From positions 12,462,001 through 12,526,000 of the forward strand of contig CM126230.1 in NCBI GenBank assembly GCA_052327205.1: a stretch of DNA of 64,000 nucleotides, in the 5' to 3' direction. The notes under the pieces were generated by a model. That model saw only the letters and a program-made list of their open reading frames with translations, was not told the origin of the DNA and ran no database searches. A program made the position numbers and the translations under genes. Positions 1 to 54,786 of this stretch are shown here, one piece after another (position 1 is the stretch's first letter; each line of letters starts with the position of its first letter). This DNA comes from Somniosus microcephalus. Lineage: Eukaryota.

Positions 1-3000
1 CGCCCCCTCCCGACCCCGATCGCCCCCTCCCTACCCCCGATCGCCCCCTCCTTCCCCCCCCGATCGCCCCCTCCCTCCCCTCCGATCTCCCCCTCCCTCA
101 CCCCGATCGCCCCCTCCCTCCCCCCGATCGCCTCCTCCATCCCACCGATCGCCCGCCCCCTCCCCCTCCCCCGATCGCCCCCTCCCTCCCCCCGATCAGC
201 CCCCCTCCCCCGATTGCACCTCCCCTCCCCCCGATCGCCCCTCCCACCCTCCGATCATCCCCTCCCTCCCCCCGATCGCCCCCTCCCTCGCCCCCGATCG
301 CCCCCTCCCTCTCCCCGATTGCCCCCTCCCCCCCGATCGCCCCCCCTCGATCATCCCCCTAAATCGCCCCCTCCTGATTGCCCCCTCCCTCCTGATCGCC
401 CCCTCACTGCCGATCGCCCCACCCTCCCGATCACCTCCTCCCTCCCGAGCGCCCCCTCCCTCCCCCCAATCGCCCCCTCCCTCCCGATTGACCCCTCCCT
501 CCTGATCGCCCCCTCCCTCCCGATCGCCCCCTCCCTCCCGAGCGCCCCCTCCCTCCCCACAATCGCCCCCTCCCTCCCGATTGATCCCTCCCTCCTGATC
601 GCCCCCTCCCTCCCGATCGCCCCCTCCCTCCTGATCACCCCCTCCCTCCCAATCGCCCCCTCCCTCCCGATCACGTCCTCCCTCCCTCCCCCCCGATCAC
701 CCCATCCCTCCCCCCATCACCCCCTCCCTCCCTCCGTTCGCCCCCTCCCTCCCCCCGATCACCCCCTCCCCCGATCACCCCCTCCCTCCCCCCGATCACC
801 CCCTCCCTCCCCCCGATCAGCCCCCTCCCCCCCGATCACCCCCTCCCTCCCTCCCGATCACCCCATCCCTCCCCATCACCCCCTCCCTCAATCCGACCGC
901 CCCCTCCCTCCCCCCCCGATCGCCCCCTCCCTCAGCCATCACCCCATCCCTCCCTCCGATAGCCCCCTCCCTCCCCCCGATCACATACTCCCTCCCCCCC
1001 GATCGCACCCTCCCTCCCCCCGATCGCCCCCTCCCTCCCTCCGATCGCCCCCTCCCTCCCCCCCGATCACCCCTCCCTCCACCCGATCGCCCCATCCCTC
1101 CCCCTCGATCGCCCCCTCCCTCCCCCTCGATCGCCCCCTCCCTCCCCCTTGATCGCCCCCTCCCTCCCGATCGCCCCCTCCCTACTCATCGCCCCCTCCC
1201 TCCCGATCGCCCCCTCCCTCCCGTTCGTCCCCTCCCTCCTGATCGCCCACTCCCTCCCGATCTCCCCCTCCCTACTCATCACCCCCTCCCTCCCTATCGT
1301 ACCCTCCCTCCCTCCTGATCACCCCCTCCTTCCCGATCACTACTTCCCTCCCTCCTGATCACCCCCTCCTTCCCGATCACCCCTTCTCTCCCTCCCTCCC
1401 TCCCTCCTGATCGCCCCCTCCCCCCTCCCGATCACCCCTTCCCTCCTGATCACCCACTCCCTCCTGATCACTCCCTCCCACCCGATCGCCTCCTCCCTCC
1501 TGATCACCCCCTCCCTCCCTCCCGATCAAACCCCCTCCCGATCACCCACTCCCTCCGTCCCTCCCTCCCTCCCAATCGCCCCCTCCCTCCCGATCACCCC
1601 TCCCTCCCTCCCTCCTTCCCGATCACCCCCTCCTTCCCAATCACCCCCTCCCTCCCACCCTCCCTCCTGATCGCCCGCTCCCTCCCTCTTGATCATCCCC
1701 TCCTTCCCGATCGCCCCCTCCCTCCTCATCGCCCCTTCCCTCCCGATCACCCCCTCCCACCTGATCGCCCCCTCGCTCCCTCCCGATCGCCCCCTCCTTC
1801 CTGATCGCCCCCTCACTCCCGATCACCCCCTCCCTTCCTCCCGATCACCCCATCCCTCCCCCCATCAACCCCTCCCTCCCTCAGATTGCCCCCTCCCTCC
1901 CCCGATCACTCCCTCCGTCCCCCCGATCACCCCCTCCCCCCGATCGCCCCCTCCCTCCCGATCACCCCATCCCTCCCCCATCACCCCCTCCCTCCCTCCG
2001 ATCGCCCCCTCCCTCCCCCGATCGCCCCCTCCCTCCCCCCCGATCGCCCCCACCCCCCTCGATTACCCCCCATCGCCTCCTCCCTTCCCCCGATCACACC
2101 CTCCCTTCCCCTGATCACACCCTCCCTCCCCCCTGATCGCCCCCTTCCTGCCCCCAATCGCCCCCTCGCTCCATCCCGATCGCCCCCTCTCTCCCCCCAA
2201 TCGCCCCCTCCCTCCCTCCCGATCGCCCCCCCCTCCCGATCGCCCCCTCACTCCCGATCGCCCCCTCCCTCTCGATCGCCTCCTCCCTCCCGATCGCCCC
2301 CTCCCTCCTCATCGCCCACTCCCTCCCGATCGCCCCCTCTCTACCGATCGCCCCCTCCCTCCCCCCCGATCACCCCTCCCTCCCCCCGATCGCCCCCTCC
2401 CGCCCCCCCGATCGCCCCCTCCCTCCCCGCTGATCGCCCCCTCCCTCCCGCCGATCACCCCCTCCCTCCTTCCCGATCGCCCCCTCCCTCCTCATCGCCC
2501 CTTCCCTCCTGATCACCCCCTCCCTCCCGATCACCCCCTCCCTCCCTCCCGATCACCCCATCCCTCCCCCATCAACCCCTCCCTCCCTCCAATTGCCCCC
2601 TCCCTCCCCCGATCACCCCCTCCCTCCCCCCGATCGCCCTCAACCTTCCTCCTGATCGCCCCTCCCTCCCTCCTGATCGCCTCCAACCTCCCTCCTGATT
2701 GCCCCCTCCCTCCCGATCACCCCCTCCCCCCTGATCGCCCTCTCCCTCCCTCCCGATCACCCCATCCCTCCCCCATCACCCACTTCCTCCCTCTGACCGC
2801 CCCCTCCCTCCCCCCCCGATCGCCCCCCCTCACCCATCAACCCTCCCTCCCTCCGATCGCCCCCTCCCTCCTCCGATCGCCCCCTCCCTCCCCCCCGATC
2901 GCCCCTCCCTCCCCGATCGCCCCCTCCCTCCCCCTCGATCGCTGCCTCCCTCCCCCTCGATCGCCCCCTCCCTCCCCCCCGATCGCCCCCTCCCTCCCCC

Positions 3001-6000
3001 GATCGCCACCACCCTCCCCCTCGATTGCCGCCTCTCTCCCCTCCCGCCCCTCGATCATCCCCTCCCGCCCCACCCGATCACCCCTCCCTCCCCCCCGATC
3101 GCCCCCTCCATCCACACAATCACCCCCTCCCTCCCCCCGATCGCCCCCTCCCACCGATTGCCCCCTCCCTCCCCACAATTGCCCCCTCCCTCCCCCCGAT
3201 CAACCCTCCCTCCCCCCCGATCACCCAATCACATCCCCCGATTGCCCCCTCACTCTCCCCCAATCGCCCCCTCCCTCCCCCCGATCGCCCCCTCCCTCCC
3301 CCGATCGCCCCCTCCCTCCCTCCCGATCGCCCCCTCCCTCCCTCCTGATGGCCCCCTCCCTCCCGATCACCTCCACCCTCCTGATCACTCCCTCCCTCCC
3401 GATCGCCCCCTCCCTCCCGATCACCTGCTCCCTCCCGATCGCCCCCTCCCTCCCGATCACCCCCTCCCTTCCTCCCGATCGCCCCCTCCCTCCCGATCAC
3501 CCCCTCCCTCCCTCCCGATCACCCCCTCCCTCCCTCCCAATGGCCCCCTCCCTCCTGATCACCCCCTCTCCCTCCCGATCGCCCCCTCCCAACCAATCGC
3601 ACCCTCCCTCCTGATCACCCCCTCCATCCCTCCCTCCCTCATCATCGCCCCCTCCCTCCTAATCGCCCCCTCCCTCCTGATCACCCTCTCCCTCCCTCCT
3701 GATCGTCCCCTCCCTCCTGATCACCCCCTCCCTCCCTCCCGAACACCCCCTCCCTCCCACCCGATCGCCCTCTCCCTCCCCCGATCGCCCCCACCCCACC
3801 TCGATCACCCCCCATCGCCTCCTCCCTACCCCTGATCGCCCCCTCCCTCTTATCACTCCCTCCCTCCCGATCGCCCCCTCCCTCCCGATCACCCGCTCCC
3901 TCCCGATCGCCCCCTCCCTCACCCATCACCCCCTCCCTCCCTCCGATCGCCCCCTCCCTCCCCCCGATCGCATACTCCCTCCCCCCCTGATCGCCCGCTC
4001 CCTCCCCGCGATCGCCCCCTCCCTCCCCCTCGATCGCCACCTCCCTCCCCTCCCATCACACCCTCCCCCCCTCGATCACCCCTCCCTCCCCCGATCGCCC
4101 CCTCACTCTCCCCCAATCGCCCCCTCCCTCCCCCCAATCGCCTCCTCCCTCCCCCGATTGCCCCTCTCCCCCCGATCGCCCCACCCCCCCTCGATCACCC
4201 CCCGATCGCTTCCTCCCTTCCCCCGATCGCTCCCTCCCTCCCTCCCAATCGCCCCCTCCCTGCTCATCGCCTCCTCCCTCCCTATCGCCCCTTCCCTCCC
4301 GATCACCCCTCCCCCCCTCCCTCCCACCCTCCTGATCACCCCTTCCCTCCTGATCACCCACTCCCCTCCCGATTACTCCCTCCGTCCCAATCGCCCCCTC
4401 CCTCCCGATCATCCCCTCCTTCCCAATCGCCCCTTCCTCCCGATCGCCCCCTCCCTCCCGATCACCCCCTCCCTCCCTCCCGATCACCCCCTCCCTCCCT
4501 CCCAATGGCCCCCTCCCTCCTGATCACCCCCTCTCCCTCCCGATCGCCCCCTCCCAACCAATCGCACCCTCCCTCCTGATCACCCCCTCCATCCCTCCCT
4601 CCCTCATCATCGCCCCCTCCCTCCTAATCGCCCCCTCCCTCCTGATCACCCTCTCCCTCCCTCCTGATCGTCCCCTCCCTCCTGATCACCCCCTCCCTCC
4701 CTCCCGATCACCCCCTCCCTCCCACCCGATCGCCCTCTCCCTCCCCCGATCGCCCCCACCCCACCTCGATCACCCCCCATCGCCTCCTCCCTACCCCTGA
4801 TCGCCCCCTCCCTCTTATCACTCCCTCCCTCCCGATCGCCCCCTCCCTCCCGATCACCCGCTCCCTCCCGATCGCCCCCTCCCTCACCCATCACCCCCTC
4901 CCTCCCTCCGATCGCCCCCTCCCTCCCCCCGATCGCATACTCCCTCCCCCCCTGATCGCCCGCTCCCTCCCCGCGATCGCCCCCTCCCTCCCCCTCGATC
5001 GCCACCTCCCTCCCCTCCCATCACACCCTCCCCCCCTCGATCACCCCTCCCTCCCCCGATCGCCCCCTCACTCTCCCCCAATCGCCCCCTCCCTCCCCCC
5101 AATCGCCTCCTCCCTCCCCCGATTGCCCCTCTCCCCCCCGATCGCCCCACCCCCCCTCGATCACCCCCCGATCGCTTCCTCCCTTCCCCCGATCGCTCCC
5201 TCCCTCCCTCCCAATCGCCCCCTCCCTGCTCATCGCCTCCTCCCTCCCTATCGCCCCTTCCCTCCCGATCACCCCTCCCCCCCTCCCTCCCACCCTCCTG
5301 ATCACCCCTTCCCTCCTGATCACCCACTCCCCTCCCGATTACTCCCTCCGTCCCAATCGCCCCCTCCCTCCCGATCATCCCCTCCTTCCCAATCGCCCCT
5401 TCCCTCCTGATCACCCCCTCCCTCCCGATCGCCCCTCCCTCCCCCGATCGCCCCCTCCCTTCCCCCAATTGCCTCCAAACTCCCTCCTGATCGCCCCCTC
5501 CCTCCCTCCCGATCGCCCCCTCCCTCCTTATCAATCGCCCCCTCCCTCCCTCCCTCCCTCCTGATCGCCCCCTCCCTCCCTCCTGATCACCCCCTCCCTC
5601 CTGATCGCCCCCTCCGTCCCGATCACCCCCTCCCCCCCGATTGCCCCCTCCCTCCCTCCCGATCACCGCATCCCTCCCCACGATCGCCCCCTCCCTCCCT
5701 CCGATCACCCCCTCCCCCCCGATTGCCCCCTCCCTCCCTCCCGATCACCGCATCCCTCCCCACGATCGCCCCCTCCCTCCCTCCGACCGCCCCCTCCCTC
5801 CCCCCGATCGCCCCCTCCCTCCCCCCGATCGCCCCCTCCCTCCCTCCTGATCGCCCCCTCACTCCGATCACCCCCTCCCTCCCTCCTGATCGCCCCCTCC
5901 CTCCCGATCACCCCATCCCCCCCTCACCCATCAACCCCTCCCTCCCCCTCGAACGCGGCCTCCCTCCCCTCCCATCGCCCCCTCCCCCCCTCGATCACCC

Positions 6001-6382
6001 CCTCCCGCCCCTTCACTCTCCCCCGATCGCCCCCTCCCTCCCCCCTGATCACCCCCTCCCTCCCGATCGCCCCCTCCCTCCCTCCCGATCGCACTTCCCC
6101 CCCGATCGCCCCCTCCCCTCCGATCGCCCCCTCCCTCCTGATCACCCCCTCCCTCCCGATCAGCTCCTCCCACCCCGATCGCCCCCTCCCCCCACAATCG
6201 CCAACTCCCTCCCTCCCGATCGCCCCCTCCCTCCCGATCGCCCCCTCCCTCCCGATCACCCCCTCCCTCCCTCCCGATCGCCCCCTCCTTCTGATCGCCC
6301 ACTCCCTCCCGATCACCCCCTCCCTCCCAATCGCCCCCTCCCTCCTGATCACCCCCTCCCTCCCTCCCGATCGCCCCCTCCC

Positions 6383-6612
6383 TGTGGTAAACCACTGTAT
6401 TGTATATTGCCACCTCTGGGTGGCGCTGTGTATGGAGGCATGCCTCAGCTGACTCCACCCACCACTGTGTGGGTTTCGTTCAGACTTGTTCAGTCACTCA
6501 CGAAGAAGCATGGTCTCTTCTTAGCTAATAAAAGCCTTATTCATCTCTTCTTTCGACTCGTCATCTCTTCTTCAACTCATCACCTTTTATGAAGTAATTG
6601 ATAAGCGTATCA
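6383..6612 (+). mobile_element. Solo LTR (230 bp) of the adjacent Gypsy element
   Basis: TG...CA termini, identical by eye to the LTRs at 7085 and 11208, flanked by CTCCC on both sides, no internal sequence. Confidence 0.95.
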
Positions 6613-7084
6613 CTCCCTCCCAATCGCACGCTCCCTCCTGATCGCCCCCTCCCTCCCTCCTGATCGCCCCCTCCCTCCTGATCGCCCTCTCCCTCCTGAT
6701 CGCCCTCTCCCTCCCTCCTGATTTCCCGTCCCTCCCGATCACCCCCTGCCTATCGCTCCCTCCCTCCCGATCACTCCCTCCCTCCCTCCCTCGCGATCAC
6801 CCCCTCCCTCCCGATCACCCCCTCCCTCCCAAACGATTGCACCCTCCCTCCTCATTGCCCCCTCCCTCCTGATCGCCCCCCTCCCTCCCGATCGCCCCCC
6901 CCTCCCACCCTCCGTCCCGATCACCCCCTCCCTTCTGATCACCCCCTCCCTCCCTCCCGATCGCCCCTTCCCTCCTGATCACCCCCTCCCTCCCAATCGC
7001 CCCCTCCCTCCCGATCACCCCCTCCCTCCCAATCGCCCCCTCCCTCCTGATCACCCCCTCCCTCCCTCCCGATCGCCCCCTCCC

Positions 7085-7314
7085 TGTGGTAAACCACTGT
7101 ATTGTATATTGCCACCTCTGGGTGGCGCTGTGTATGGAGGCATGCCTCAGCTGACTCCACCCACCACTGTGTGGGTTTCGTTCAGACTTGTTCAGTCACT
7201 CACGAAGAAGCATGGTCTCTTCTTAGCTAATAAAAGCCTTATTCATCTCTTCTTTCGACTCGTCATCTCTTCTTCAACTCATCACCTTTTATGAAGTAAT
7301 TGATAAGCGTATCA
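7085..7314 (+). repeat. 5' LTR
   Basis: TGTGGTAAACC...GCGTATCA; AATAAA at 7229-7234. Confidence 0.95.
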
Positions 7315-7315
7315 A

Positions 7316-7328
7316 TTTTATTAGCTAA
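7316..7328 (+). promoter_or_regulatory. Primer-binding site, self-priming type (complementary to LTR 7223-7235)
   Basis: TTTTATTAGCTAA lies 1 nt after the 5' LTR and is the exact reverse complement of TTAGCTAATAAAA in the LTR. There is no TGG-initiated tRNA PBS. Confidence 0.8.
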
Positions 7329-7335
7329 AAGTTAA

Positions 7336-9909
7336 ATGGCGACACCTGAGGAGCAACAACAGCAACGGATACAGCAGACATTGCTGAGAGCCCTCAGACC
7401 ACCACGCCTGGACCTCGACCCTCAAGAGGTGGGTGCATCAGCCAAGTTTGAACACTGGCTGAGCTGCTTTGAATCCTTCCTCGCAATCTCACAGGTTACA
7501 GAGGAGGATCACAAACTGAAAATTTTGACCGCCCAGGTGAGCCATCAAGTATATATGCTAATCCGGGACTCTAATACGTACGTGGCGGCCCTCGAGCTAC
7601 TAAAAGGGCAATATACGCGCCCAGTGAACACAATTTACGCCCGACACCTCTTGGGATCCCGCAGGCAGCAACCGGGAGAATCGGTAGGGGCATTTGCACG
7701 GGCGCTACTGGCACTCTGCAGAGACTGCGATTGTAAAGCGGTAACGGCTGTGGAGCACGCGCAGGGACTCGCCTGTGATGCCTTCGTCAGGGGCCTCCAG
7801 TCAGACCACACCCGGCAGAGACTGCTAGAAAGCAAGGAACCCGACCTGAAGACGGCCATTGCCCTTGCGCTCTCGTTAGAGGAGGCCCACCGAAACCTCG
7901 AGGCATACCCCCGTAACGGCGCCGAGACATGGCAATCGAAACCGTGGGACACGGGACCGCCGCCCCCGGCACCAACCGCTGCAGCGACCCAACCGAGACA
8001 GCAGCCTCCGGTAAGAACTGCTTCGATGCCCAGTAACCAGGCCCAAAGATGCTATTTCTGTGGCCAGTTAAAACATCCCAGAGCGCACTGCCCAGCTAAG
8101 ACAGCTACCTGCTCGGGCTGCGGGAAGAAAGGCCATTACGCTAACGCCTGCAAGGGGAAGCCAGCCAGCAGCGCAGCGTGCGGGCCGTGGGAGCAGCCAT
8201 CTTATCCGCCATTTTGTGTACCCCCGGCCGCATGGCATCCGCCGCCATCATATCCAACGCACTCAACCGCCATTTCGTCACCGGAACCGACCACCGTCTC
8301 GGCGGATGACTATAGTGACTCACTAAGCCACATACTGGCCTCCGTGACGCTGGATCAAGCCCTCCCTCACCATCTATCCAGCTCCATGATGGATATCGCG
8401 GTAAACGGCCGCGCCACCAGTTGCCTGATCGACAGCGGGAGCACAGAGAGTTTCGTCCACCCCGACACGGTACGTAGCCACTCCCTCACGATTCTGCCAA
8501 CGCACCATCACATTTCTATGGCGTCCAAGTCCCAGTCAATGGACATCAGCGGCTACTGTGTGGTGACCCTGTCAGTAGGGGGCACTGAATATAAAAAATT
8601 TAAACTGCTAGTCCTGCCCCGTCTTTGCGCTGCCGTCCTGCTAGGGTTGGATTTTCAGTGCCACCTTAAGAGTGTCACACTAGCATACGGTGGACCCCTC
8701 CCCCCACTCACAGTCTGCAACCAACAACTTTTAAATCGCCCGCTGCAAACCACCTGCAGCCTTTCCACATTAAAAGTCCCCCCCCCTCCCCTGTTCGCTA
8801 ACCTCACCCGCGACTGTAAACCCATCGCTACCAAAAGCAGGCGGTACAGTGCCGGGGACAGAGCTTTTATCAGCTCTGAGGTGGAGCGGCTATTGAAGGA
8901 GGGCATTATCGAAGGTAGCACTAGCCCCTGGCGAGCCCAGGTTGTAGTCGTTAAAACCACTGCAAAACGCCGCATGGTAATCGACTACAGCCAAACCATA
9001 AACCGGTACACCCAGCTGGACGCGTACCCCCTCCCTCGCATATCTGATATGGTCAATCAGATTGCGCAATACAAAGTATTCTCCACCATCGACCTTAAGT
9101 CAGCGTACCACCAGCTGCCCATCCGCCATGAGGACCGCCAGTATACTGCCTTCGAGGCAAACGGCCGCCTCTACCACTTCCTTAGGGTCCCCTTCGGCAT
9201 CACCAACGGGGTTTCGGTCTTCCAAAGGGAGATGGACCGAATGGTTGACCAGAACGCGCTGCGGACAACCTTCCCCTATTTGGATAACGTCACCATCTGC
9301 GGCCACGACCAGCAGGACCACGACGTTAATCTAGCAAATTTCCTCCGTACGGCCCAACGGCTGAACCTAACGTACAATAAAGAAAAATGTATGTTTCACA
9401 CCAAGCGCCTGGCCATCCTCGGCTGCGTGGTGGAGAACGGAGTCATCGGGCCCGACCCCGACAGAATGCGCCCCCTAATGGAGCTACCCCTTCCCCACTG
9501 CCAAAAAGCACTGAAGAGATGCCTGGGGTTTTTCTCCTACTACGCCCAGTGGGTGCCCCTCTATGCAGACAAAGCCAGGCCCCTCATCAAAGCCACCTCC
9601 TTCCCCCTGACACCAGAGGCGTGTGCAGCCTTCACTCTTATCAAGAACGATATCGCGAAGGCCGCAATGCACGCGGTGGATGAGTCCATCCCCTTCCAAG
9701 TGGAGAGCGATGCCTCCGACTTCGCCCTAGCCGCGACCCTTAACCAGGCGGGCAGACCCGTGGCCTTTTTCTCAAGGACCCTCCAGGGCCCCGAGACGAG
9801 ACACTCCTCCGTCGAAAAGGAGGCCCAGGCTATTGTAGAAGCGGTGCGTCACTGGAGCATTACCTGGCCGGGAAACGATTTACCCTGCTCACTGACCAGC
9901 GTTCAGTAG
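7336..9909 (+). CDS. gag-pol: Gag-Pol polyprotein, N-terminal part: Gag with two CCHC zinc knuckles, aspartic protease, reverse transcriptase, RNase H (frameshifted at ~9856)
   Basis: CYFCGQLKHPRAHC and CSGCGKKGHYANAC knuckles; LIDSGS protease motif; RT motifs IDLKSAYHQL, VPFG and YLDN; RNase H motifs ESDASD and EKEAQAIV. Confidence 0.93.
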   Translation: MATPEEQQQQRIQQTLLRALRPPRLDLDPQEVGASAKFEHWLSCFESFLAISQVTEEDHKLKILTAQVSHQVYMLIRDSNTYVAALELLKGQYTRPVNTIYARHLLGSRRQQPGESVGAFARALLALCRDCDCKAVTAVEHAQGLACDAFVRGLQSDHTRQRLLESKEPDLKTAIALALSLEEAHRNLEAYPRNGAETWQSKPWDTGPPPPAPTAAATQPRQQPPVRTASMPSNQAQRCYFCGQLKHPRAHCPAKTATCSGCGKKGHYANACKGKPASSAACGPWEQPSYPPFCVPPAAWHPPPSYPTHSTAISSPEPTTVSADDYSDSLSHILASVTLDQALPHHLSSSMMDIAVNGRATSCLIDSGSTESFVHPDTVRSHSLTILPTHHHISMASKSQSMDISGYCVVTLSVGGTEYKKFKLLVLPRLCAAVLLGLDFQCHLKSVTLAYGGPLPPLTVCNQQLLNRPLQTTCSLSTLKVPPPPLFANLTRDCKPIATKSRRYSAGDRAFISSEVERLLKEGIIEGSTSPWRAQVVVVKTTAKRRMVIDYSQTINRYTQLDAYPLPRISDMVNQIAQYKVFSTIDLKSAYHQLPIRHEDRQYTAFEANGRLYHFLRVPFGITNGVSVFQREMDRMVDQNALRTTFPYLDNVTICGHDQQDHDVNLANFLRTAQRLNLTYNKEKCMFHTKRLAILGCVVENGVIGPDPDRMRPLMELPLPHCQKALKRCLGFFSYYAQWVPLYADKARPLIKATSFPLTPEACAAFTLIKNDIAKAAMHAVDESIPFQVESDASDFALAATLNQAGRPVAFFSRTLQGPETRHSSVEKEAQAIVEAVRHWSITWPGNDLPCSLTSVQ

Positions 9910-9914
9910 CTTTT

Positions 9915-11165
9915 ATGTTTAATAATAAGCAGAGGGGTAAAATCAAGAACGACAAGATCTTGAGGTGGAGAATCGAACTCTCCACCTACAATTATGATAT
10001 CTTGTATCGGCCAGGGAAACTCAATGAGCCCCCAGATGCCCTATCACGTGGTACATGCGCCAACGCGCAGAGTGATAGGCTGCAGTCCCTCCACAATGAC
10101 CTCTGCCACCCGGGGGTCCCCAGGTTTTTCCATTTTATCAAATCCCGTAACCTGCCCTACTCCATCGAGGAGGTCAGGACCATGACCAAGAGCTGCCAAA
10201 TCTGCGCCGAGTGCAAACCGCACTTCTATAGGCCGGACAGAGCAAGCCTGATCAAGGCCACCCGCCCCTTCGAACGCCTGAGCGTCGATTTTAAAGGGCC
10301 CCTCCCCTCCGCTGACCGCAATGTGTACTTCCTCAACATAGTTGATGAGTACTCCCGTTTCCCCTTTGCCATCCCTTGCCCAGACATGACCAGTACCACG
10401 GTCATCAAGTGTCTGAATGACATCTTCGCTCTGTTCGGGTTCCCCAGCTATATACATAGCGACAGGGGCTCATCGTTCATGAGCGACGAACTTCGGCAGT
10501 ACCTGCTAACAAGAGGTATCGCCACGAGCAGGACCACCAGTTACAACCCCCGGGGGAACGGCCAGGTGGAAAGGGAGAACGCGACGGTTTGGAAGGCAGT
10601 CCTCTTAGCACTAAAATCTAAGGGCCTTCCGACCTCCCGCTGGCAGGAGGTCCTCCCTGCAGCGCTCCACTCCATTCGGTCACTGCTTTGTACTGCCACT
10701 AATGCGACCCCTCATGAGAAAATGTTCGTTTTCCCCCGGAAGTCTACATCGGGAACCTCGCTACCGGCATGGTTGACTTCTCCTGGGCCCGTCCTACTGC
10801 GGAGGCACGTGAGGACGCATAAAATGGACCCCCTGGTCGAGCGGGTGCACCTCCTACACGCCAACCCCCAGTATGCCTGGGTGACATACCCAGACGGGCG
10901 GGAGGACACGGTCTCCATACGAGATCTCGCACCCTCGGGTACCCCTGAATTACCACCGTTATCCCCCTTACCACCGTTATCCCCCTTACCACTGTTATCC
11001 CCCACCACCCCTCCCAACCCAACCCCTGCAGACGGCATGCCAAAGCCCCAGGAATCTTCGCCAACCACCCAGACACCAGACCCGACGTCGGATGCTGCAA
11101 CACCACCGCCGCCACCACGACGATCAGGACGTCAGACAAGGCCTCCTGATAGACTTAACTTGTAG
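9915..11165 (+). CDS. pol: Pol C-terminal part: end of RNase H and DDE integrase (reading frame actually continues from ~9858)
   Basis: HHCC (HNDLCH...CQIC); DDE motifs VDFKGP, SDRGSSF and NGQVER; C-terminal RRSGRQTRPPDRL. Upstream in the same frame is HYLAGKRFTLLTDQRSV. Confidence 0.93.
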   Translation: MFNNKQRGKIKNDKILRWRIELSTYNYDILYRPGKLNEPPDALSRGTCANAQSDRLQSLHNDLCHPGVPRFFHFIKSRNLPYSIEEVRTMTKSCQICAECKPHFYRPDRASLIKATRPFERLSVDFKGPLPSADRNVYFLNIVDEYSRFPFAIPCPDMTSTTVIKCLNDIFALFGFPSYIHSDRGSSFMSDELRQYLLTRGIATSRTTSYNPRGNGQVERENATVWKAVLLALKSKGLPTSRWQEVLPAALHSIRSLLCTATNATPHEKMFVFPRKSTSGTSLPAWLTSPGPVLLRRHVRTHKMDPLVERVHLLHANPQYAWVTYPDGREDTVSIRDLAPSGTPELPPLSPLPPLSPLPLLSPTTPPNPTPADGMPKPQESSPTTQTPDPTSDAATPPPPPRRSGRQTRPPDRLNL

Positions 11166-11193
11166 TACCCTTCACCCCGCCGGACTTCACATT

Positions 11194-11207
11194 AAACAAG
11201 GGGTGAA
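11194..11207 (+). promoter_or_regulatory. Polypurine tract (plus-strand primer)
   Basis: AAACAAGGGGTGAA directly 5' of the 3' LTR. Confidence 0.8.
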
Positions 11208-11437
11208 TGTGGTAAACCACTGTATTGTATATTGCCACCTCTGGGTGGCGCTGTGTATGGAGGCATGCCTCAGCTGACTCCACCCACCACTGTGTGGGTT
11301 TCGTTCAGACTTGTTCAGTCACTCACGAAGAAGCATGGTCTCTTCTTAGCTAATAAAAGCCTTATTCATCTCTTCTTTCGACTCGTCATCTCTTCTTCAA
11401 CTCATCACCTTTTATGAAGTAATTGATAAGCGTATCA
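11208..11437 (+). repeat. 3' LTR
   Basis: Identical to the 5' LTR; followed by the CTCCC TSD. Confidence 0.95.
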
Positions 11438-12979
11438 CTCCCTCCCAATCGCACGCTCCCTCCTGATCGCCCCCTCCCTCCCTCCTGATCGCCCCCTCCC
11501 TCCTGATCGCCCTCTCCCTCCTGATCGCCCTCTCCCTCCCTCCTGATTTCCCGTCCCTCCCGATCACCCCCTGCCTATCGCTCCCTCCCTCCCGATCACT
11601 CCCTCCCTCCCTCCCTCGCGATCACCCCCTCCCTCCCGATCACCCCCTCCCTCCCAAACGATTGCACCCTCCCTCCTCATTGCCCCCTCCCTCCTGATCG
11701 CCCCCCTCCCTCCCGATCGCCCCCCCCTCCCACCCTCCGTCCCGATCACCCCCTCCCTTCTGATCACTCCCTCCCGATCGCCCCTTCCCTCCTGATCACC
11801 CCCTCCCTCCCAATCGCCCCCTCCCTCCCGATCACCACCTCCCTCCCGATCACCCCCTCCCTCCCAAACGATCGCACCCTCCCTCCTCATCGCCCCCTCC
11901 CTCCTGATCTCCCCCTCCCTCCCGATCGCCCCCTCTCTCCTGATTGCCCCCCCTCCCGATTGACCCCTCCCTCCCTCCCGATCACCCTCTCTCTCCCAAT
12001 CGCCCCTTCCTCCTGATCGCCCCCTCCCTCCCTCCTGATCGCCCCCTCCCTCCCGATCACCCCCTCCCTCCTGATCACCCCTCCCTCTTGATCTCCCCCC
12101 CACCTCTCCCAGGACCTACCTGAGGGCCGTGCCAGCGACACAGTGACCTTAAATTGAAACCCTCTTTGCCGGCGAGCTGCCTGGCGACGCCCAGTCTAAA
12201 TGTGACCCAATATCAGGTGCGCCTTGGTCTGGCCCGCTGCGGTGCAGCGATCGTTCCCTCACCCAGGCACAAACCAATTTCTCGGACTACATCTCTTAAA
12301 GAACACAGCAGGAGCCCTAACACACTAAGAATTTGAATTCAGGCATTCTGTGGAATATTTGTAAAATTGCTGTTATTATCACATCACAGAGCGTGTTAAA
12401 AACAGTGCTAAAATCACATGCAAGATTACACAATTCATACCAACACATTAGCCTAATTCAGCAACGCCGATAAAAAAACCACAGGGGTGTGAAATATCTA
12501 TCAACACTATAATTGCACAGTATTCCATTGTAGTTTAGGCCAAAACAGCATTTAAAGGTATCAACACATCACTTGTAATACACACCTTTATTTTAGAGGC
12601 TCGGAGGATTTGTCTCCTCGTTCCCCGGCTAATTGTAGAAGTTAGCTTTTCTTTGAGAGGCGGCTGGCACATGACAAGGAAATGGGGAGTAATTACTGTT
12701 CTGACAATAAGATACAAGAGGGTCTTGACAGAAAGCATTTGGAACTCTAAAGGGCAGGGGAGTATGCCACAGGGAAAGAGGCTGGGAAAGGAAACAGATT
12801 GTCAGGGATTACGCCACCGAGTCAAATCAGGTCCTAACCCTCTGAGACTGAGATCAGAGAGTAGCCACAGAAGCAGCAGAGAGATCCCTGACTCCACAGA
12901 AAGGACATTCTCAAGGTTTCACCCTAACGGTTTTAAGGCTACAATATGAAAGAAAGAAAAAACAAACAAACGGAAGAAA

Positions 12980-33870: not shown

Positions 33871-35614
33871 ATAGAAACATAGAAACATAGAAGATAGGAG
33901 CAGAAGTAGGCCATTCGGCCCTTCGAGCCTGCCCCGCCATTCAATGAGATCATGGCCGATCATCCAAATTCAGTACCCTGTCCCTGCCTTCTCCCCATAT
34001 CCCTTGATCCCTTTAGCCTTAAGAAATATATCCAACTCTTTCTTGAATATATTTAATAAACTGGCCTCCACCGCCCTCTGTGGCAGAGAATTCCACAGGT
34101 TCACCACTCTCTGGGTGAAGAAATTCCTCCTCATTTCAGTCCTAAATGGCTTACCCCTTATCCTTAGACTATGACCCCTGGTTCTGGACTCCCCGGCCAT
34201 CAGAAACATCCTTCCTGCATCTAGTCTGTCCAGGCGTGACAGAATTTTATAGGTTTCGATGAGATCCCCTCTCAATCTTCTAAACTCCAGTGAGTATAAG
34301 CCCAATCGAAACAATCTCTCCTCATACGTCATTCCTGCCATCCCAGGTATCAGCCTGGTGAATCTTCGCTGCACTCCTTCCATGGCAAGAACGTCCTTCC
34401 TCAGGTAAGGCGACCAAAACTGCACACAATATTCAAGGTGCGGTCTCACCAAGGCCCTGTACAACTGTAGCAAGACATCCTTGTTCCTGTACTCGAGCCC
34501 TCTTGCTACGAAGGTCAACATACCATTTGCCTTCTTAACCGCCTGCTGCACCTGCATGCTTACCTTCAGTGACTGGTGCACAAGAACACCCAGGTCTCTT
34601 TGCACTTCCCCTTTTCCCAATCTATTGCCATTCAAATAATAATCTGCCTTCCTGTTTTTGCCACCAAAGTGGATAACCTCACATTTATCCACATTATAGT
34701 GCATTTGCCATGTTTCTGCCCAATCACCCAACCTGTCCAAATCGTACTGGAGTTTCACGACATCCTCCTCACAGCATACCCTCCCACCCAGCTTTGTGTT
34801 GTCTGCAAATTTGGAGATATTACATCCAATTCCCTCGTCCAGATCATTAATATATATTGTGAACAGCTGGGGTCCTAGGACCGATCCTTGCGGTACCCCA
34901 CTAGTTACTGCCTGCCACTCGGAAAACGATCCGTTTATTCCAGCTCTTTGCTTTCTGTCCACCAACCAGTTCTCTATCCAAGTCAATACCTTGCCCCCAA
35001 TCCCATGTGCCTTAATTTTGCATGCTAATCTCTTATGCGGGACCTTATCAGAAGCCTTCTGAAAGTCCAAATACACCACATCCACTGGTTCTCCCTTATC
35101 TATTTTACCAGTTACATCCTCAAAAAATTCCAGTAGATTAGTCAAGCATGATTTACCTTTTGTAAATCCATGTTGACTTTGTCCGATCCTGTCACTGCTT
35201 TCCAAGTGCTCTGCTATTACATCTTTTATAATGGACTCTAGCATTTTCCCCACTACCGATGTCAGGCTTACTGGTCTATAATTCCCCGCTTTTTCTCTAC
35301 CACCCTTTTTGAATAGTGGGGTAACATTAGCTACCCTCCAATCCATGGGTACTGTTCCAGAGTCTATCGAGTTCTGGAAGATGACCAGCAATGTATCTAT
35401 TATTTCTAGGGCCACTACCTTAAGTACCCTGGGATGTAGATTATCAGGCCCTGGGGATTTATCGGCCTTCAGTCCCATCAATTTTCCTAACACCATTTCC
35501 CTACAAATACTGATTTATTTCAGTTCCACCCTTTCATCAGACCCTATGTTCCCCGGCATCTCTGGGAGGTTATTTGTGTCCTCCTTTGTGAAGACAGAAC
35601 CAAAATATGTATTT
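33871..35614 (-). mobile_element. 5'-truncated CR1 (family A) with an uninterrupted RT ORF
   Basis: ORF 33970-35496; tail (ACATAGAA)n joined to satellite GAAACA. Confidence 0.96.
33970..35496 (-). pseudogene. CR1 ORF2 reverse-transcriptase domain (no endonuclease; catalytic FADD changed to FADN)
   Basis: 508-aa open frame with all RT motifs but FADN. Confidence 0.88.
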
Positions 35615-52364: not shown

Positions 52365-54786
52365 ATAAGAACATAAGAAATAGGAGCAGGAGTAGGCCAA
52401 TCGACCCCTCGAGCCTGCTCCGCCATTCAATAAGATCATGGCTGATCTGATCCTAACTGCCAATCCACTATCACAGAACCATCTCCTGAATCTAACAGAA
52501 TTAGACACAGGAAATAGGAGCAGGATCAGGCTACACGGCCCCTGGGCCCGCTCCGCTACCCACAGGGCCATGACCGATCCGAACCTAGACTCATGTCCAA
52601 ATTCCTGCCCGCTCCCCGTAACCCTTAATTCCCTTTACTTCTAGGAAACTGTCTATTTCTGTTTTAAATTTATGTAATGATGTAGCTTCTACAGCTTTTT
52701 GGGGCAACGTATTCCATGGACCTACCACCCTCTGAGTGAAGTAGTTCCTCCTCATCTCAGTTTTGAAAGAGCAGCTCCTTATTCTAAGACTATGCCCCCT
52801 AGTTCTAGTTTCACCCATCATCGGGAACATCTTCCCCGCATCCACCCGATCCAACCCCTTCACAATCTTATATGTTTCAATAAGATTGCCTCTCATTCTT
52901 CTGAACTCCAATGAGTAGAGTCCCAATCTACTCAACCTCTCCTCATATGTCCATCCCTTCATCCCTGGGATTAACCGAGTGAACCTTCTTTGTACTGACT
53001 CGAGAGCAAGTATGCCCTTTCTTAAGTATGGACACCAAAACTGTACGCAGTATTCCAGGTGCTGTCTCACCAATACCTTGTACAACTGAAGCAATACCTC
53101 CATATTTTTATATTCTATCCCCCTAGCAATGAAAGCCAACATTCCATTGGCCTTCTTAATTACTTGCTGCACCTGCATACTAACCTTTTGAGTTTCGTGC
53201 ACCAAGACCCCCAGATCCCTTTGTACTTCAGTACTTTCCAGTTTCTTGCCATTAAGATAATAACTTGCTCTACGATTTTTCATGCCAAAGTGCATAACCT
53301 CACACTTTCCAGTATTGTATTCCATCTGCCAAATCTCTGCCCACTTACTTAGCCTGTCTATGTCCCCTTGCAGGTTTTTTATGTCCTCCTCACTCACTAC
53401 TTTCCCTCCCATCTTAGTATCATCTGCAAACTTTGATATGTTACACTCGGTCCCCTCCTCCAAATCGTTACTATAGATTGTAAAGAGTTGGGGACCCAGC
53501 ACTGACCCCTGCGGAACACCACTAGTTACTGATTGCCAGTCTGAGAATGAACCATTTATCCCAACTCTCTGCCTTCTGTTAGATAGCCAATTCTCTATCC
53601 ATGCCAGAATATTACCCCCAATCCTGTGATTTTTTATCTTAAGCAATAATCTTTTGTGTGGCACCTTGTCAAATGCCTTTTGGAAGTCTAAATACATTAC
53701 GTCCACTGGTTCCCCTTTATCCACCCTATATGTTACTTCCTCAAAGAACTCCAGCAAATTTGTCAAACATGACTTCCCCTTCATAAAACCATGCTGACTT
53801 TGTCCTATTAAATTATGATTATCCAAATGTCCTGTTACTGTCTCCTTAATAATGGACTTCAAAATTTTACCTACCACAGATGTTAGGCTAACCGGTCTAT
53901 AGTTTACAGCCTTCTGTCTACTGCCCTTTTTAAATAAGGGTGTTACATTAGCAGTTTTCCAGTCTGCCGGGACCATTGCCGAGTCCAGGGAGTTTTGGAA
54001 AATTATTACCAATGCATCCACAATCCCTACCGCCACTTCCCTCAAGACCCTAGGATGTAAGCCATCGGGTCCAGGTGATTTATCCGCCTTGAGTCCCATT
54101 ATTTTACTGAGTACCACTTCCTTAGTGATTTTGATCATGTTTAGCTCCTCCCCCCTTTAGCCCCCTGTTTGTCCAGTGTTGGGATATTCTTAGTGTCTTC
54201 TACTGTAAAGACTGATATAAAATATTCATTCAGTGTTTTTGCCATCTCCATATTTCCCACCATTAATTTCCCGGTCTCATCCTCTAAGGGACCAACATTT
54301 ACTTTAGCCACCCTTTTTCTTTTTATATAACTATAAAAACTCTTACTATCTGTTTTTATATTTTTTGCTAATTTACTTTCATAATCTATCTTCCCTTTCT
54401 TAATCAATCTTTTTGTTATTTGTTGCTGTCTTTTAAAGTTTTCCCAATCCTCTATCCTCCCACTAGATTTGGCTACCTTATATGCCCTTGTTTTAAGTCG
54501 AATATTATCCTTAATTTCTTTACTTAGCCACGGATGGCTGTCTTTTCTTTTACACCCTTTTCTTCTCAGTGGAATATATATTTTTTTGGAAGTTGTAAAA
54601 TAACTCCTTAAATGTACACCACTGATCATGTATCGTCTTACCCTTTAATCTATTTTCCCAATCCACTCTACTCAATTCCGCTCTCATACCTTCATAGTCT
54701 CCTTTATTCAAGCTTAGCACGCTTGTTTGAGATCCAACCTTCTCACCCTCTAATTGAATATGGAATTCAACCATGTTATGGTCACT
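52365..54786 (-). mobile_element. 5'-truncated CR1 (family B) in the satellite
   Basis: ORF2 segments joined by frameshifts near 54140 and 54590; TSD CATTC (52360-52364, 54787-54791); (ACATAAGA)n tail. Confidence 0.96.
52591..54138 (-). pseudogene. CR1 ORF2 RT domain, 515-aa open segment
   Basis: KSPGPDG, QHGFMKGKSC, GVPQGSVLGP, FADD; the upstream part is frameshifted and the endonuclease largely missing. Confidence 0.88.

Follow-up and report, generated by a model that had tools for sequence, protein, structure and literature searches.

The window analysed here, 64,000 nucleotides (nt) of the Somniosus microcephalus contig CM126230.1 (host genome assembly, 6.4 Gb), contains at 7085–11437 a retrotransposon bounded by two long terminal repeats (LTRs) and flanked on both sides by a CTCCC target duplication. 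Its LTRs, target duplication, polypurine tract, and domain order of protease, reverse transcriptase (RT), RNase H, and integrase are those of the Ty3/Gypsy group, the best PDB match of the element being the Ty3 RT (E-value, 1e-35), and the closest named proteins in a protein search are shark and ray sequences. In the RNase H region (about 9850–9915), a frameshift disrupts the gag-pol frame of this copy. Altogether, the element is a young Ty3/Gypsy retrotransposon of a compact, chromodomain-free clade with a Mag-type Gag. A segment of its LTR pairs with the primer site just past the 5′ LTR, and the comparison of relatives described below makes it probable that reverse transcription in this clade is self-primed from the folded 5′ leader of the genomic RNA.

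Between the end of the 5′ LTR at 7314 and the gag ATG at 7336 lies a leader of 21 nt without TGG, in agreement with the earlier note on this DNA, which had seen no tRNA-type primer-binding site (PBS) here and had read the leader as complementary to the LTR itself. The latter point was also borne out: 7316–7328 is the exact 13-nt reverse complement of 7223–7235 in the R region of the LTR (this duplex is hereafter called P1). A 13-nt match between LTR and leader arose in 0 of 20,000 dinucleotide shuffles of the whole LTR; when only its AT-rich last 110 nt were shuffled, the count was 2 of 20,000. The proposed 3-bp extension (7219–7221 with 7329–7331) was recovered in predicted folds starting at 7210, 7215, or 7219 and ending at 7335, and the overlap of the primer segment with the poly(A) signal was confirmed. 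The pair probability of P1 is high in most predicted folds of the window leader. The best complementarity of a host tRNA to the primer site was 7 nt among the four distinct tRNA sequences tested (the Rfam search having given mostly one tandem array), and no Rfam match was found within the element. A tandem array of tRNA-Cys(GCA) is located in the host genome (G000) at 42.90–43.07 Mb of contig C24, with a period of ~1.59 kb and more than 50 copies listed.

Table 1. Features of the element and its 5′ leader (positions in the window).
Feature	Position	Strand	Description
Third LTR copy	6383–6612	+	identical; 702 bp upstream; its flank is the same as that of the 3′ LTR
5′ LTR	7085–7314	+	230 bp, TG..CA, identical to 3′ LTR
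5′ LTR, window copy			without the TATA box of the sister families; ~20 nt extra of near-repeats in U5
Predicted self-primer segment in R	7223–7235	+	includes AATAAA (7229–7234); predicted 3′ end at 7235
Helix P2, 5′ arm	7236–7243	+	begins at first base past primer; predicted partner here 7302–7310
Alternative hairpin spanning the LTR end	7298–7317	+	competitor of P2; also takes up primer-site bases 1 and 2
Spacer base between LTR end and primer site	7315	+	single nt
Primer-binding site	7316–7328	+	complement of the element's own R segment, not of a tRNA 3′ end
gag-pol, part 1	7336–9909	+	Mag-type capsid, two CCHC knuckles, protease, RT, start of RNase H
gag-pol, part 2	9915–11165	+	end of RNase H, integrase, proline-rich tail; no chromodomain
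Polypurine tract	11194–11207	+	ends in GAA and abuts 3′ LTR; similar in relatives
3′ LTR	11208–11437	+	230 bp; no primer site after it, poly(A) signal thus free of P1

The leader is shared by all 30 fetched copies of the window family. In the host genome, the exact 38-nt junction of this family occurs 1,581 times and a looser junction pattern of the lineage 21,002 times, the reversed control giving 0 in both cases. Among the first 100 lineage junctions listed, the two free letters beside the hexamer and their partners are visible in 90, and by eye they are Watson–Crick complements in 88 of these, in five different combinations; the 90 include one mismatch and one G–U pair, and one further row is mismatched at another free position. 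The self-complementary leader is a lineage-wide trait, not a damaged copy. Mismatched copies considered as possible replication intermediates were not decisive and were set aside (L224 and L156 differ in the 5′ LTR only, L231 differs in the site only, and L226 is ambiguous).

Relatives of the element numbered 1,359 in a protein search, the named ones belonging to cartilaginous fishes, cnidarians, an echinoderm, nematodes, insects, molluscs, and a fluke. Twin CCHC knuckles are found in 87 of 92 full-length relatives, and the acidic motifs of RNase H are retained in 73–92 of the same 92. Scans of viral contigs found no relatives, and none of the listed data sets holding relatives is recorded as RNA. 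A metagenome scan left 80 loci, with a gag start in 46 and enough upstream DNA in 41; these 41, the window, and 28 of 30 sister-family loci of the host genome constitute the test set of 70. An exact duplex of at least 11 bp starting 0–3 nt after a CA is present in 58 of the 70 loci, and the gap between LTR end and duplex is exactly 1 nt in 53 of these 58; the LTR end defined by the CA agrees with the 3′ LTR wherever the latter gave a clean end. Many of the loci are near-copies, and their collapse left 39 distinct pairs of LTR and primer site. With the register fixed, 34 of these reached a score of 11.5 or more out of 13, whereas none of 208 control windows of coding DNA exceeded 11.0. Watson–Crick pairs fill 429 of the 442 cells (34 pairs × 13) and G–U pairs four, against a mean of 295 and a maximum of 328 when the sites were permuted among families. 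In an alignment of 23 of the 34 pairs, selected for intact duplexes, all 299 cells pair and 11 of the 13 base pairs change on both sides, which was matched by 0 of 500 shuffles; slid registers of the same rows give 24–53% pairing.

The spacer base is A in 33 of the 34 pairs, no TGG occurs near the LTR end in any of them, and the relatives' leaders (16–45 nt; loops, 20–79 nt) contain no other primer site. The primer site itself takes 26 different 11-nt sequences, several of them within one genome, each matching its own LTR. The earlier note had named compensatory covariation of the R/PBS duplex across related families as a check on its proposal of tRNA-independent priming; such covariation is found in the fixed register in the 34 pairs, and this clade-wide compensatory change supports the proposal. 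In one relative (L081, 100–250), the LTR end and primer site are doubled ahead of the start codon.

Other elements of the same genome were used as controls, with lineage labels based on Pfam domains together with primer-site motifs and knuckles. The sushi-type controls (L147–L150, young chromoviruses), which carry DUF4939, SH3_Tf2-1, and Chromo, have an 11-bp self-duplex after a 1-nt gap and, by eye, a TA-rich box 30 nt upstream, as the Tf1 geometry predicts. In the Mag A-type and CsRN1-like controls, a TGG site follows the LTR end after a 1-nt gap and no self-match exceeds 7 nt, and the Mag C-type control, of which the site only was examined, has TGG with no gap. Because P1 lies in the same register as the tRNA sites and the sushi self-primers, it occupies the place where a primer must sit.

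Along the 34 pairs, pairing is absent at the spacer base (0/34), near complete at positions 1–13, partial at 14–16, and at background beyond. A further helix, P2, follows the primer without a gap, its start reading GCCT or ACCT in 25 of the 34 pairs (RCCT/AGGY in most relatives), and reaches at least 4 bp in 21, compared with a mean of 9.0 and a maximum of 19 in shuffles; it is bulged in the window copy. G–U pairs account for 4 of 433 pairs in P1 and 14 of 99 in P2, a contrast mildly favoured by the P1 score, which gave G–U half weight. The intramolecular P1 duplex is predicted in all 34 folds, and in 22 of the 34 pairs the last base of an AATAAA or ATTAAA is either that of the primer or the one preceding it. 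Two inner helices had also been described for the window leader (7239–7246 with 7291–7299, and the hairpin at 7298–7317). Both exist as sequence but cannot all form together: because they overlap each other at 7298–7299, and the hairpin overlaps the primer site at 7316–7317, they are alternatives. The predicted fold of the window leader instead contains P2, stacked right after P1, and the hairpin at the LTR end forms in the predicted folds of two relatives (L032 and L033).

Upstream of the duplex, a TATA match is located at a distance of 69–73 nt in all six sister types of the host genome and, in a second comparison, in 9 of 11 loci with values; one of the two exceptions shows TATATAAG, and the other is the window's own family, in which the box is lost. 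A TATA-like match is seen in only 4 of 27 metagenome pairs. If the sister-family TATA is used, transcription would start ~40 nt before the duplex, as judged from the usual spacing. Because the sister families place TATA ~71 nt upstream, the primer is probably an internal piece and not the 5′ end of the transcript. The start site formerly expected at ~7219–7223 is put in doubt by this box. Compared with L158 over 7160–7200, the window family, with its near-identical copies, has lost the TATAAAG box that its sisters retain at a constant distance. It has also gained ~20 nt in U5, and is a recently expanded, TATA-less family.

From the observed duplex, its register, its covariation, and the missing tRNA site, we infer the following course of cutting, extension, and strand transfer. 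Genomic RNA starting upstream of 7223 would fold P1 with P2 stacked directly after it. It would then be severed between 7235 and 7236, where P1 and P2 meet, the RNase H of the element being the most likely agent, as in Tf1; to this step we give about an even chance. RT would extend the new 3′ end across the spacer base, U5, and the remaining R and then jump to the 3′ R; the stretch of R that remains from the cut to the poly(A) site would serve for this transfer. During plus-strand synthesis the primer would be copied into its binding site again, and this would account for the near-pure Watson–Crick pairing despite the drift of the letters. Templated copying of the primer into its site is established for tRNA-primed retroelements. 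In Tf1, the primer cut depends on RNase H (PMC7175516), and the primer is reported to be copied into cDNA (PMC11042837). A further advantage would be concealment of the poly(A) hexamer by P1, confined to the 5′ LTR; masking of the 5′ signal is a plausible second use, not the whole function.

Several observations weigh against this mechanism, in addition to the scoring of G–U noted above. Five of the 39 distinct pairs (L070, L081, L105, L115, and L118) fail the duplex test, some of them looking decayed or mis-anchored, and the pair probability of P1 falls to ~0.1–0.2 in three of the five folds that end at 7360 and whose start includes the primer segment. Two raw RNA-seq runs with a matching species label gave 1,069 and 1,489 reads on 7085–8000, mostly sense over gag, with no pile-up of read ends in the LTR that would indicate a start or cut site; the LTR reads of these runs largely continue into unrelated flanks, and no poly(A) ends were seen among the read rows shown. 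If the sister-family TATA is real, the primer has ~40 extra bases at its 5′ side, unlike that of Tf1, and nothing was found that would halt plus-strand copying there. The multi-helix pretzel fold of Tf1, to which the fold of this leader had been likened, found no support, the helices flanking the PBS being no longer than in shuffles (helix 3′ of the site, 5.68 versus 5.66; helix at the LTR end, 4.38 versus 4.57; pseudoknots lie outside the model). A conserved hairpin upstream of the primer, considered as a plus-strand stop, was rejected clade-wide (mean z, 0.12; z < −1 in 3 of 34).

Other roles for the duplex, or other sources of the primer, must be set against self-priming from the folded 5′ leader. 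The main rival, which we consider unlikely, is priming by another copy of R: the 3′ R of the genomic RNA, or short LTR-only transcripts that stop at the poly(A) site of the LTR, would anneal to the primer site and undergo trimming by a 3′ exonuclease or the host 3′-end machinery. Such a primer would suit a start site well upstream of the duplex. It would also suit the position of the primer end, which in 22 of the 34 pairs coincides with the last base of AATAAA/ATTAAA or lies one base beyond it, and the pairing data cannot separate 5′ R from 3′ R. However, P2 begins exactly past the primer and forms in cis with U5, an arrangement in keeping with cleavage of the folded 5′ leader. In addition, the intramolecular duplex is predicted in every fold, and a 3′ R acting as primer would be expected to compete with strand transfer. 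Still less probable is a duplex that only hides the 5′ LTR poly(A) signal against premature polyadenylation, with priming by something else. Although the duplex encloses the hexamer in 22 of 34 pairs and in every intact family of the shark type, and although it can form at the 5′ LTR only, occlusion requires neither the fixed 1-nt register nor the near-absence of G–U; five perfect 13-bp duplexes (L061, L062, L063, L069, and L078) have no AATAAA/ATTAAA inside, with the AATAAA of L062 lying 27 nt further on, and the short leaders offer no other primer site.

That the duplex acts as a switch for translation, dimerisation, or packaging beside the gag start codon seems very improbable. In many families the AUG follows the duplex within a few bases, and the predictions include alternative folds, but the distance to the AUG varies widely while that to the LTR end is fixed, and priming would be left unexplained. 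We give the least credence to a host tRNA half or other small RNA as primer, with the LTR match being secondary: half-tRNA primers are known in Ty1/copia lineages (PMC6317226) and the screen covered only the four host tRNA sequences, but the many different 11-nt sites, several per genome, each track their own LTR, and neither the 7-nt best match nor the Rfam search of the element points to such a primer.

No Chromo or SH3_Tf2-1 match was found in the open reading frames (ORFs) of the window or in a full-length copy, both domains being present in a sushi control, and the non-chromovirus status assigned earlier is upheld. The label Mag-like stands for Gag and not for Pol. A capsid profile of the clade matches nine Gag ORFs of Mag A/C elements (E-values, about 1e-16 to 1e-21) and a tenth at 2e-6, with no match to sushi, CsRN1-like, or Barthez elements, and the knuckles are twin CCHC; the RRSxR tail has lost its value as a Mag mark, the CsRN1-like elements having a similar tail. 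In trees of RT-RNase H (37 rows) and RT-to-integrase (20 rows), which are unrooted and thinly sampled (excluding Gmr1, errantivirus, fungal, and plant rows, with few Mag rows from one genome and three sushi rows), the clade forms one side of a fully supported long branch (length, 1.55 and 1.46, respectively), and a Gmr1 outgroup search found none. The Mag A and C elements group without the clade (support, 97/93 and 99/96), and sushi groups with the CsRN1-like elements (97/95 and 86/80). The clade is separated from the three sushi rows by long, fully supported stems, the tree program warning of long-branch attraction, and its RT-RNase H identity to the Mag A/C elements of this genome is 24–27%. 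In approximately unbiased (AU) tests, a grouping of the clade with sushi was not rejected (p = 0.098 and 0.27), nor was one with all Mag elements (0.34), and that with Mag A alone was borderline rejected (0.049). Judged from these comparisons, the element is Mag-like in Gag, a clade of its own in Pol, and a non-chromovirus by its domains.

Because the nearest kin in Gag use tRNA sites, an origin of self-priming independent of Tf1/sushi is the simpler reading, and we consider it likely; the proposal that priming here arose outside Tf1/sushi is to that extent sustained, but it is unproven as long as the AU tests leave a sister relation to sushi unrejected. The fuller reading, in which tRNA-free priming was invented independently within Ty3/Gypsy, in a Mag-type ancestor, spread through many animal phyla, and uses an internal R primer cut at the end of the poly(A) signal, is put forward tentatively, at somewhat less than an even chance. 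One duplex would in that case silence the 5′ poly(A) site, supply the primer, and renew its own binding site in each cycle.

Around the element, a long C-rich minisatellite (units of ~18–22 nt) fills 1–7084 and 11438–12110 of the window, and several sister copies likewise sit in tandem repeats. The segment 6383–7084 contains the extra LTR and 472 bp of flank before the element; 330 bp of this flank match the sequence behind the 3′ LTR and then diverge slightly. The extra LTR probably results from unequal exchange in the surrounding minisatellite or from a tandem copy that lost its interior, and may be an assembly artefact. Among the first 100 listed junctions, three pairs are ~4.1 kb apart (C1:11385075/11389199, C1:45122915/45127039, and C1:92896014/92900099 of G000), the size of a tandem element with one LTR shared, and sushi-type elements of the same genome also occur in 4.64-kb tandem arrays; in Tf1, such tandem arrangements are typical of the pathway that works without integrase (PMC11042837). 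On each of two contigs (L151 and L152), a sister-family copy interrupts the RT of a Mag A-type element, with an identical insertion point in both. Elsewhere in the window, a long tandem repeat at about 30400–59200 gives rise to many spurious ORFs of low complexity and is interrupted by RT frames at 33970–35496 and 52591–54138, of LINE type as judged from their translation.

If self-priming is true for this clade, it represents a second, animal-wide self-priming clade with more than 20,000 junctions in one vertebrate genome, and independence from tRNA priming is common and probably has more than one origin. The finding is relevant to the order in which self-priming and tRNA priming arose, and explains why tools requiring a tRNA site miss or misclassify such elements. 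Host tRNA fragments are known to block tRNA primer sites, and the elements of a self-priming clade would be out of their reach. The many natural pairs of primer and site, together with the short leader, offer a compact test system for possible RNase H cleavage of RNA at an RNA–RNA junction. The clade resembles Cigr-1 of Ciona intestinalis and the RepeatMasker class Gypsy-Cigr, beside which we presumptively set it by description, as a lead only. Cigr-1 reportedly has an LTR of ~245 bp and a single frame of ~1,210 codons (our relatives have a median length of 1,203 residues); its capsid, but not its RT, is reportedly nearest to that of a Mag-type element of a sea urchin. Tunicates and molluscs have a Cigr-1 clade (PMC6238403), and no match to the motifs of our clade was found in the searched part of the supplements of PMC6238403 and PMC8556966, some files of which lie outside that part and could hold clade sequences. 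Self-priming has been tied to Tf1/sushi among Ty3/Gypsy elements and proposed for the plant copia lineage TAR (PMC7175516, PMC10085805, PMC11042837, PMC6317226). A literature search, with subscription journals, Repbase, and GyDB outside its scope, gave no description of self-priming for an animal non-chromovirus Gypsy clade; self-priming in this clade thus appears to be undescribed, an earlier description being possible.

In comparison with known systems, the clade shares with Tf1/Tf2 of Schizosaccharomyces pombe, Tj1, and other Tf1/sushi elements the absence of a tRNA site and an LTR segment that pairs just past the 5′ LTR (PMC7175516, PMC10085805, PMC11042837), and with the sushi-type elements of this genome the identical 1-nt register. 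It differs from Tf1/sushi in lacking the chromodomain and SH3_Tf2-1, in its Mag-type capsid and separate Pol clade, in a duplex of 13–16 bp that is A/U-rich and usually ends on the poly(A) hexamer, and in a short U5 and leader in which the pretzel helices are not enriched; its P2 helix, unlike the helices of Tf1, starts right after the primer, and the TATA of the sister families lies ~71 nt upstream, whereas the TA-rich box of the sushi controls lies at 30 nt. With the Mag lineage it has in common a homologous capsid and nucleocapsid with twin CCHC, a single gag-pol frame, and a similar C-terminal tail, but the Mag A and C elements of this genome carry TGG tRNA-type sites, found in none of the 34 pairs of the clade. 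Sites other than canonical tRNA sites are also known in the GalEa copia elements (the fungal Conserved Hairpin Site) and in Dictyostelium Skipper (a polypyrimidine site), but these do not pair with the LTR (PMC6934838, PMC5006619). The TAR lineage of plant Ty1/copia elements (Houba, Osr-1) offers a parallel outside the chromoviruses, self-priming having been predicted there, as here, from complementarity between LTR and site; it belongs to another superfamily in another kingdom, and shows that the idea of independent origins has already been put forward (PMC6317226).

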